From: Patescibacteria group bacterium
GTDB taxonomy: Bacteria > Patescibacteriota > Minisyncoccia > Phycocordibacterales > BOKC01
Assembly: GCA_038062955.1 (NCBI GenBank)
Contig: JBBTWE010000001.1
Location: 389,640-453,639 of the forward strand
DNA length: 64,000 nt
Reading direction: 5' to 3'
Within the stretch, counting starts at the first letter, position 1; every line of letters starts with the position of its first letter. Shown here piece after piece: positions 34,804-35,703 of this stretch. Under the pieces are notes generated by a model, which was given only the letters and a program-made list of their open reading frames with translations, made no database searches and had not been told where the DNA came from. The translations under genes and the position numbers were made by a program.

Positions 34804-35703
34804 CTATCCTTTGGTCGCCAAAATCTTTATCGCTTCGGTTACAACCGGCATAATATCATCATAGAAATTGAGGTCCAAAATATCTTTGAGTTTAAACCAT
34901 CTTGCATCATCCAACCCGCCAGACTCACCTAATTTTAATTCAACAAAAGGAGCTTCGGCTAGAAAATATTTTACAATTTTTCTGATCTTGCCCTTTTCTG
35001 GATCATAGGCAATGTACTGGTTCATACCAATCCCAGTTTGAGGCACAGCTTCAATTCCCAATTCTTTTTTGATGACTCTAGAAACACCCACATGTTCATC
35101 TTCACCGCTTTCTAATTTGCCTTTGGATAATGTCCAATGTCCAAACACATCGTGGACAAGCGGAAGAAAAATATCATTCTTTTCTTTGGCATAAACCAGC
35201 GCGCCAACAAGCATTTCAGTAGGCAAATTTTTATCCGATCCGTGATTTTTTGAATTTTTCTTGGGAGCCTCATTTTTCCCCGGTTCCCCCATTTCTTTAT
35301 AAACAGAGCCTAAAACTCCGTTTATAAACCGACTACTATTTTCTCCACCAAAAGCTTTAGCAAGTTCAATTGCTTCATTTATCGCAACTTTAGCCGGAAC
35401 TTCCTTTCTATCAGAAAATAGAAGTTCATAGAGACCAATTCTTAAAATATTGCGATCAATAATTGAAATTTTTTCCAAAGGCCAGTCTGGAGCGGCTTTC
35501 GTAATGATCGTGTCTAAGTCATTTCTTCGAGATAGAACATTCTCAAACAAAGACTTCATAAAATCCATATCTCCATGATTAGGAGCAAATTCTTTGGCAT
35601 TTCGAGAAAAAATATCTAGAGATTCTGACTCTGGAGACTTTTTAAAATCCCATTCAAAAAGAGATTGAAGAACTATGGATCTCGAAAGGTGTCTGTTAGA
35701 CAT
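34804..35703 (-). CDS. nusB: NusB antitermination factor fused to a C-terminal Nudix hydrolase domain
   Basis: NusB core [31 protein letters not shown]; Nudix box [23 protein letters not shown] (G-x5-E-x7-R-x3-EL-G). Confidence 0.85.
   Translation of the reverse strand: [299 protein letters not shown]

Follow-up and report, generated by a model that had tools for sequence, protein, structure and literature searches.

What is a Nudix domain doing at the end of NusB? NusB is a universal, well-studied part of bacterial rRNA transcription complexes, and we know of no Nus factor with a nucleotide-binding or hydrolase domain. The question is raised by one open reading frame (ORF), nusB::nudix, of a Patescibacteria group bacterium (GenBank assembly GCA_038062955.1). 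We analyzed the 64,000-nucleotide stretch of DNA that contains it (contig JBBTWE010000001.1, positions 389,640 to 453,639 of the forward strand), referred to here as the window; feature coordinates are those of the window. What is new, to judge from our literature searches, is a NusB with an accessory, partly degenerate Nudix domain of the diadenosine tetraphosphate (Ap4A) hydrolase type, which is widespread in the Parcubacteria, a large group of very small, uncultured bacteria, and present in public databases as NusB. The ORF and its parts are the following.

34804..35703, minus strand: complete nusB::nudix ORF, 299 amino acids plus stop, with an ATG start, in one frame, both Pfam domains above their cut-offs.
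35284..35703, minus strand: NusB domain, residues 1 to 140, from PF01029, TIGR01951, and matches to solved NusB structures; translation checked.
35224..35283, minus strand: Lys-rich linker, residues 141 to 160, with a low predicted local distance difference test score (pLDDT) and the lowest conservation; the PGK at its start closes the junction motif.
34807..35223, minus strand: Nudix-fold domain of the NUDT2/Ap4A-hydrolase type, residues 161 to 299, from PF00293 and from PDB and fold matches; translation checked.
35053..35121, minus strand: degenerate Nudix box, residues 195 to 217, from the translation, with RVIKKE in the place of REUXEE.

A preliminary description of this DNA had reported NusB and Nudix in one frame, quoting a NusB signature peptide and a Nudix-box peptide that correspond to residues 102 to 132 and 195 to 217 of the translation. 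This is borne out: a single 299-codon ORF carries both Pfam domains, with no stop or frameshift near position 35250. Because both Pfam domains and the NusB equivalog TIGR01951 clear their cut-offs in one ORF, we conclude that nusB::nudix is a genuine single-frame fusion, far beyond chance. An assembly error or frameshift near position 35250 was ruled out, since the ORF runs uninterrupted in four independent assemblies (two Joint Genome Institute [JGI] metagenome contigs and two assemblies of Logan runs) and 80 of 80 retrieved species-genome loci are full length. The closest homologues, P0001 (92% identical) and P0003 (72%), are intact fused ORFs in the same gene neighborhood.

A scan that took one genome per species gave at least 600 pattern matches, and 592 of these were confirmed, which puts the number of species-level genomes with a relative of the fusion protein at 592 or more. 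The best 80 of these served as our locus sample, and all 80 cover residues 1 to ∼298 and so are full-length fusions. Both Pfam domains are present in each of the 120 best database matches (62 to 92% identity, 293 to 335 residues), which, where the source supplies a name, are called "transcription antitermination factor NusB" or "N utilization substance protein B." Organism names from the sources of these 120 matches are mostly Paceibacterota, Parcubacteria, and Patescibacteria. The informative lineages (Kaiser-, Zambryski-, Nomura-, Taylor-, Yonath-, Adler-, and Lloydbacteria, Paceibacterota, and Parcubacteria) all fall in the Parcubacteria group; for two that we looked up, Kaiserbacteria and Zambryskibacteria, the NCBI taxonomy reads "Patescibacteria group; Parcubacteria group." Many bulk-submitted metagenome-assembled genomes (MAGs; among loci L002 to L078) are labeled "uncultured Candidatus Saccharibacteria bacterium." Because the fusion proteins that they carry and the synteny around them cannot be told apart from those of named Parcubacteria-group MAGs, we treated this label as uninformative, and the titles of these records are probably either generic or incorrect.

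Literature searches for NusB together with Nudix, and for NusB or Nudix in the candidate phyla radiation, Patescibacteria, or Parcubacteria, returned no description of the fusion. The preliminary description knew of no earlier account of the architecture, and it would have counted its point as refuted if the fusion proved common and already annotated. No paper describing it was found, and to that extent the claim stands. The fusion is nevertheless common, and databases annotate it as NusB alone; that name hides a second domain in at least several hundred entries.

The fusion, its domain order, and its junction motif are kept down to ∼25 to 30% identity in the Nudix domain. Among three close Nudix-only candidates, no genuine natural split into separate genes was found. 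P0125 starts at a contig edge and has rnc, the RNase III gene, after it, P0141 likewise starts at a contig edge, and in P0136 one TAA replaces the invariant codon for Tyr135 in what is otherwise an in-frame fusion. This TAA lies at 941 to 943 of locus L089, on a 2.4-kb contig, where nusB and nudix were called separately; it reflects either an error in sequencing or a nonsense mutation of recent origin.

The N-terminal half had been recognized as NusB at the outset, and profile searches agree. PF01029 covers residues 7 to 136 (E value of 9.9e-35; 120.3 bits against a Pfam-A cut-off of 23.1; profile positions 3 to 133 of 133), and TIGR01951 scores 127.2 bits against an NCBIfam cut-off of 88.35. 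Residues 1 to 140 align end to end with solved NusB structures from Thermotoga maritima (E value of 7.8e-21), Escherichia coli (E value of 2.4e-16), and Aquifex, and the matched E. coli structures come from lambda-N and rrn antitermination complexes. Foldseek placed the model of this half on Aquifex NusB 3r2d_B, from a NusB-NusE-RNA complex, with a template modeling (TM) score of 0.89 and a root mean square deviation of 1.8 Å, and the AlphaFold model has helices throughout residues 3 to 138, the all-helical NusB fold. We conclude that the NusB half is an intact, bona fide NusB, that of a member of the Parcubacteria group within the candidate phyla radiation. A six-frame hidden Markov model search of the 64-kb window found no second NusB. 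The solved NusB chains that were matched are 139 to 156 residues long and end where the linker starts here, whereas the fusion protein has 160 further residues (linker plus Nudix) and the invariant junction motif YKE.GEPGK.

RsmB/Sun, the 16S rRNA m5C967 methyltransferase, is a known case of fusion in which a NusB-like N-terminal domain precedes a C-terminal catalytic domain with rRNA as its substrate. RsmB models match residues 33 to 165 of the fusion protein through the NusB-like domain, scoring 55.6 against a cut-off of 319. The NusB-like domain of RsmB is a paralogue with no known role in antitermination, and its partner is a methyltransferase, whereas the partner here is a Nudix domain.

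The two halves are joined by a conserved motif followed by a variable stretch. In the motif, Y135-K-E-x-G-E-P-G-K143, residues Y135, K136, E137, G139, E140, P141, G142, and K143 are invariant in 115 sequences. The AlphaFold model, for which an alignment of 115 sequences was the input, has a mean pLDDT of 84.8 and two confident domains, with residues 141 to 156 disordered (pLDDT of <50). Conservation within the protein is lowest in the linker (mean pairwise identity of 0.44 for residues 141 to 160, compared with 0.73 for NusB and 0.64 for Nudix), and the stretch from residue 141 to 162 has a median length of 22 residues, a net charge of +2, and 25% Lys plus Arg.

To which Nudix family does the C-terminal half belong? 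PF00293 matches residues 166 to 279 (E value of 7.1e-8; 33 bits against a Pfam-A cut-off of 21.1). The best PDB sequence matches are NUDT2 (E value of 4.5e-6), Chlamydia trachomatis CT771 (1.9e-5), the Caenorhabditis elegans Ap4A hydrolase (5.7e-4), and the Aquifex Ap4A hydrolase (3.6e-3). The last of these is also the top fold match (3i7u; TM score of 0.86 to 0.90), with CT771, Thermus thermophilus Ndx1, Mycobacterium tuberculosis Rv2985, and human NUDT2 among further fold matches; E values for Nudix structures reach down to 7e-11, so that the half has the alpha/beta/alpha Nudix fold. The Nudix domain of the regulator NrtR (3gz8) is also among the fold matches, and two of the matching NUDT2 PDB entries are the E58A mutant. 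By both sequence and structure, then, the Nudix half belongs with the NUDT2-type Ap4A/dinucleoside-polyphosphate hydrolases. It shares with the Ap4A hydrolases an HWTxxKG motif and basic or aromatic residues at the positions aligned to the enzymes' ligand-binding residues. The Ap4A hydrolases stand alone or have other fusion partners and carry canonical boxes, whereas the fusion protein has V and K at the positions of NUDT2 E58 and E61. The Nudix half is descended from enzymes of this type and permanently fused to NusB in the Parcubacteria group.

An RppH-like RNA pyrophosphohydrolase, as suggested in the preliminary description, is not what we find: with the RppH equivalog NF001936, the protein reaches 18.9 bits where the cut-off is 118, and BdRppH is a weak match (E value of 0.042), so we rejected this identity. 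This Nudix subtype is also joined to further domains related to nucleic acids (P0161, P0233, P0211, and P0221), in arrangements that include Endonuclease V plus Nudix, sigma70_r4 plus DnaA_C helix-turn-helix (HTH) plus Nudix, and tandem Nudix-Nudix; one protein in this set, of 577 residues, has an unassigned N-terminal extension of ∼316 residues ahead of NusB-Nudix.

The Nudix box had been described as canonical, and here the preliminary description has to be corrected. Against the signature GX5EX7REUXEEXGU, the protein reads G195-KLESG-E201-DEHVGVS-R209-V210-I-K-K213-E214-L-G-I. Residues G195, E201, R209, E214, G216, and I217 are retained, but REUXEE has become RVIKKE, with two of its three glutamates replaced. 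In alignments, V210 pairs with NUDT2 Glu58 and C. elegans Glu52, K213 with Glu61 and Glu55, and E214 with Glu62 and Glu56. NUDT2 trims 5′-triphosphate (5′-PPP) RNA, and its E58A mutant, in which a metal-coordinating glutamate is changed, is inactive on this substrate (PMC8616924). An active Ap4A-type hydrolase is therefore not supported for this protein as it stands: its nearest relatives are NUDT2-type, yet the equivalent of NUDT2 Glu58 is absent.

Box statistics were drawn from 241 full-length fusion proteins, with changes counted by parsimony on a neighbor-joining tree. All three glutamates are present in 79 of the 241 (33%), two acidic residues in 135, and one in 24, this protein included. 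The family has switched between Glu and another residue at position 210 at least 37 times and between an acidic and a nonacidic residue at position 213 19 times; the corresponding counts for E214, which is retained in 235 of the 241, and for K194 are 6 and 3. The double substitution of V210 and K213 is common to the two closest relatives (boxes RVIQKE and RVVQKE), and similar double losses occur elsewhere in the family. True standalone relatives of ∼140 to 150 residues (29 to 35% identity) lie in unrelated gene contexts and have canonical boxes, for example, REIAEETG, which is why the ancestral state of the Nudix domain was probably an ordinary enzyme.

The residues aligned with the ligand pocket behave differently. 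H189, K194, K237, K239, K242, and Y281 align with C. elegans H31, K36, K79, K81, K83, and Y121, of which we take the first five to be polyphosphate binding and Y121 to be adenine stacking. They are kept in 181, 238, 141, 212, 230, and 237 of the 241 fusions, respectively, and F187 is kept in 235. Further invariant residues are H184, D185, W190, N228, Y230, Y246, the GGLD at 262 to 265, and D283. Comparison with the 92%-identical relative (box RVIQKE), at a dS of ∼0.84 to 1.0, gave dN/dS values of 0.069 (Nudix domain) and 0.041 (NusB); the Nudix domain is thus under strong purifying selection and is not decaying.

The pocket is fixed, the catalytic carboxylates are labile, and purifying selection is strong, a combination that resembles the pattern seen in NrtR, whose perturbed-signature Nudix domains bind ADP-ribose without appreciable hydrolysis while a few members with an intact signature are active; restoring the signature raised the rate 600-fold (PMC2330246). 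As in NrtR, a Nudix domain is found here inside a transcription factor and many signatures are perturbed, with ligand binding kept and a minority of proteins intact and active in the NrtR case. NrtR consists of an N-terminal Nudix domain of the ADP-ribose-pyrophosphatase type and a winged-helix DNA-binding domain, and it represses promoters. The fusion protein, in contrast, has an Ap4A-hydrolase-type Nudix domain after an RNA-binding elongation factor and no HTH; it is not a member of the NrtR family, and the resemblance is functional only.

We therefore lean, with belief and doubt in equal measure, toward reading the Nudix domain as a tethered ligand-binding module for a nucleotide polyphosphate or an RNA 5′ end, with turnover slow or absent in this protein. 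Since key catalytic residues are lost here, binding or sensing appears more likely than cleavage in this lineage. The NusB half would bind S10 and the boxA of nascent rRNA leaders as in other bacteria and would tether the leader to RNA polymerase, favoring the leader-trailer helix that RNase III cuts. The Nudix domain would be held beside the antitermination complex by the flexible, basic linker of ∼20 residues and would act mainly in ligand binding. Its ligand could be a dinucleotide of the Np4N type (two nucleosides bridged by four phosphates) or the 5′-triphosphate or capped end of the nascent leader. Hydrolysis would be slow or absent here and probably kept in the approximately one-third of the family with an intact box. 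The general idea of the preliminary description, a Nudix domain linking the antitermination complex to nucleotide or RNA 5′-end chemistry, is plausible in this form. Both domains are ordinary ones; the effect on antitermination is entirely inferred.

More specifically, and more tentatively, the attenuated Nudix domain might be a built-in nucleotide sensor of the Parcubacteria rRNA antitermination complex, binding Np4N alarmones or the 5′-triphosphate or capped end of the leader, a proposal that we consider possible but doubtful. If it were true, rRNA transcription and RNase III-dependent leader-trailer processing would respond to nucleotide stress signals or to 5′-end status. To our knowledge, no nucleotide-sensing regulatory layer of this sort has been described for any Nus factor. 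Fixation of the fusion across a large clade of highly reduced genomes suggests a function wired into the complex that model bacteria supply in trans or lack, and the series from intact to degenerate boxes in one family could show the conversion of a hydrolase to a sensor, as proposed for NrtR. A Nus factor with a built-in nucleotide-binding domain would be noteworthy to specialists in transcription elongation and is directly testable.

Several observations weigh against the tethered binding module. The predicted TM score (pTM) of the AlphaFold model is 0.49, so the arrangement of the domains relative to each other is given without confidence and no fixed orientation between them is predicted. 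The residue equivalences come from alignments at 22 to 25% identity. E201, E214, and the invariant GGLDD loop are still present, and activity is known from some Nudix enzymes whose boxes are atypical; this protein's Nudix domain may have residual or altered catalysis. Because one-third of the family keeps a canonical box, hydrolysis may be ancestral, and it may be the relevant activity in the intact-box lineages. Finally, the Nudix domain is acidic (median isoelectric point of 5.2; net charge of −6), which argues against an extended RNA-binding surface. A more basic Nudix surface was looked for and not found: the domain is no more basic than its standalone relatives, in proteins with intact and degenerate boxes alike.

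Could the domain instead be an active enzyme, as in the preliminary description, delivered by NusB and boxA to its substrate? Such an enzyme would hydrolyze the 5′-triphosphate of the leader, an Np4N or NAD cap in the manner of NUDT2 or RppH, or free Ap4A. The subfamily is one of Ap4A hydrolases, and NUDT2 itself trims 5′-PPP RNA (PMC8616924). The intact box in 79 of the 241 fusions, the E214 retained in 235, and the strong purifying selection on the domain would also be in keeping with catalysis, and the neighboring gene rnc encodes an RNA-processing enzyme. However, the position of NUDT2 E58, where an alanine suffices to kill NUDT2, is occupied by V in this protein, and that of the next conserved Glu by K; across the family, the E58 equivalent has changed at least 37 times while the binding residues stayed fixed. 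The RppH equivalog is far below its cut-off (18.9 bits against 118), and perturbed signatures in NrtR accompany negligible activity (PMC2330246). We consider an active tethered enzyme unlikely.

The Nudix fold might also serve as a structural or protein-interaction scaffold in the antitermination complex, for example, by stabilizing NusB/S10 integration, and bind no small molecule at all. There is a precedent in E. coli, where stable NusB/E integration requires SuhB, an enzyme-fold protein annotated as an inositol monophosphatase and integral to the NusB-containing rRNA transcription complex (PMC6614801). SuhB differs in that it has an unrelated fold, is a separate polypeptide, and binds NusA AR2, and its equivalence with the fusion Nudix domain is a hypothesis only. 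The lability of the catalytic residues, the acidic Nudix surface, and the invariant YKE.GEPGK motif at the junction would all suit a scaffold. Against this, hardly any variation is seen at the residues aligned to the phosphate-binding lysines and the adenine-stacking tyrosine, which is hard to explain without a nucleotide ligand, and no docking of the Nudix domain on NusB is predicted (pTM of 0.49). A pure scaffold thus seems to us distinctly improbable.

Very unlikely, in our judgment, is an incidental fusion, in which a housekeeping Ap4A hydrolase gene was joined to nusB for coexpression in a reduced genome with no coupling to antitermination: genomes of candidate phyla are compact and contain gene fusions, and the same Nudix subtype is fused to Endonuclease V and to sigma70_r4 plus DnaA_C, but fusion, order, and junction motif have been kept over hundreds of species to ∼25 to 30% Nudix identity, the lack of a natural fission among the three candidates argues against it, and repeated loss of catalytic glutamates under purifying selection is unexpected for a housekeeping hydrolase.

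The gene neighborhood is strongly conserved. Genes were identified by Pfam, and the conserved order is rnhB-rpmF-nusB::nudix-rnc-smc, which in the window comprises, besides the fusion, the following genes.

36022..36621, minus strand: rnhB (RNase HII), the first gene of the cluster, PF01351.
35744..35980, minus strand: rpmF (ribosomal protein L32), the upstream neighbor, PF01783.
33962..34648, minus strand: rnc (RNase III), the downstream neighbor, PF14622, PF00636, and dsrm.
30431..32665, minus strand: short SMC homologue of 744 residues, after rnc, PF02463 SMC_N on residues 2 to 729.

In the sample of 80 loci, rnc lies downstream on the same strand in all 80 and rpmF upstream on the same strand in 78. 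On the same strand within 1.5 kb, rnhB is found upstream in 60 of the 80 and smc downstream in 49, and smc is seen downstream of rnc in most. Because a divergent fusion (P0234, locus L088, on a 282-kb contig), ∼30% identical in its Nudix domain, keeps rpmF-nusB::nudix-rnc-smc, both the fusion and its association with rnc are old within the lineage. In the model proposed for E. coli, boxA-bound NusB keeps the rRNA leader close to the polymerase and so lets it pair with the trailer, which gives the leader-trailer helix that is cut by RNase III (PMC10250234; PMC6614801). The conserved pairing of nusB and rnc fits this functional link between NusB, the leader-trailer helix, and RNase III.

Between rpmF and rnc-smc (33962 to 35980, minus strand), nusB::nudix is the only gene. 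In Firmicutes, plsX-fabD-fabG-acpP lies upstream of rnc-smc, and in E. coli, rpmF adjoins plsX; the rpmF-nusB::nudix-rnc-smc cluster might be what remained after loss of lipid-synthesis genes. The relatives of the SMC homologue are 696 to 748 residues long, all far below the usual size of bacterial SMC, which is roughly 1,200 residues, and this implies a much shortened coiled coil. A promoter and terminator scan around nusB::nudix gave counts not above those of shuffled sequence, and an Rfam scan of the window returned one tRNA only and no rRNA or leader element.

The spacer between nusB::nudix and rnc holds one further element.

34649..34785, minus strand: 137-nucleotide (nt) palindromic hairpin in the nusB-rnc spacer, fold of −41 kcal/mol, z = −3.9.

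This hairpin reaches right up to the rnc start codon. The closest relatives lack it and have a spacer of 36 bp; the hairpin is a lineage-specific insertion outside the conserved system. It belongs to a family of hairpins of 37 to 137 nt at 5323 to 5457, 33651 to 33687, 34649 to 34785, and 63901 to 63965, with a common terminal stem (CCCGTAGTGAA...TTCTACTACGGG), and half-sites lie near 861, 24612, and 25849. Two copies flank rnc. The elements may be repeats of the repetitive extragenic palindromic (REP) or miniature inverted-repeat transposable element (MITE) kind and, as long double-stranded RNA stems beside the RNase III gene, could be substrates of RNase III.

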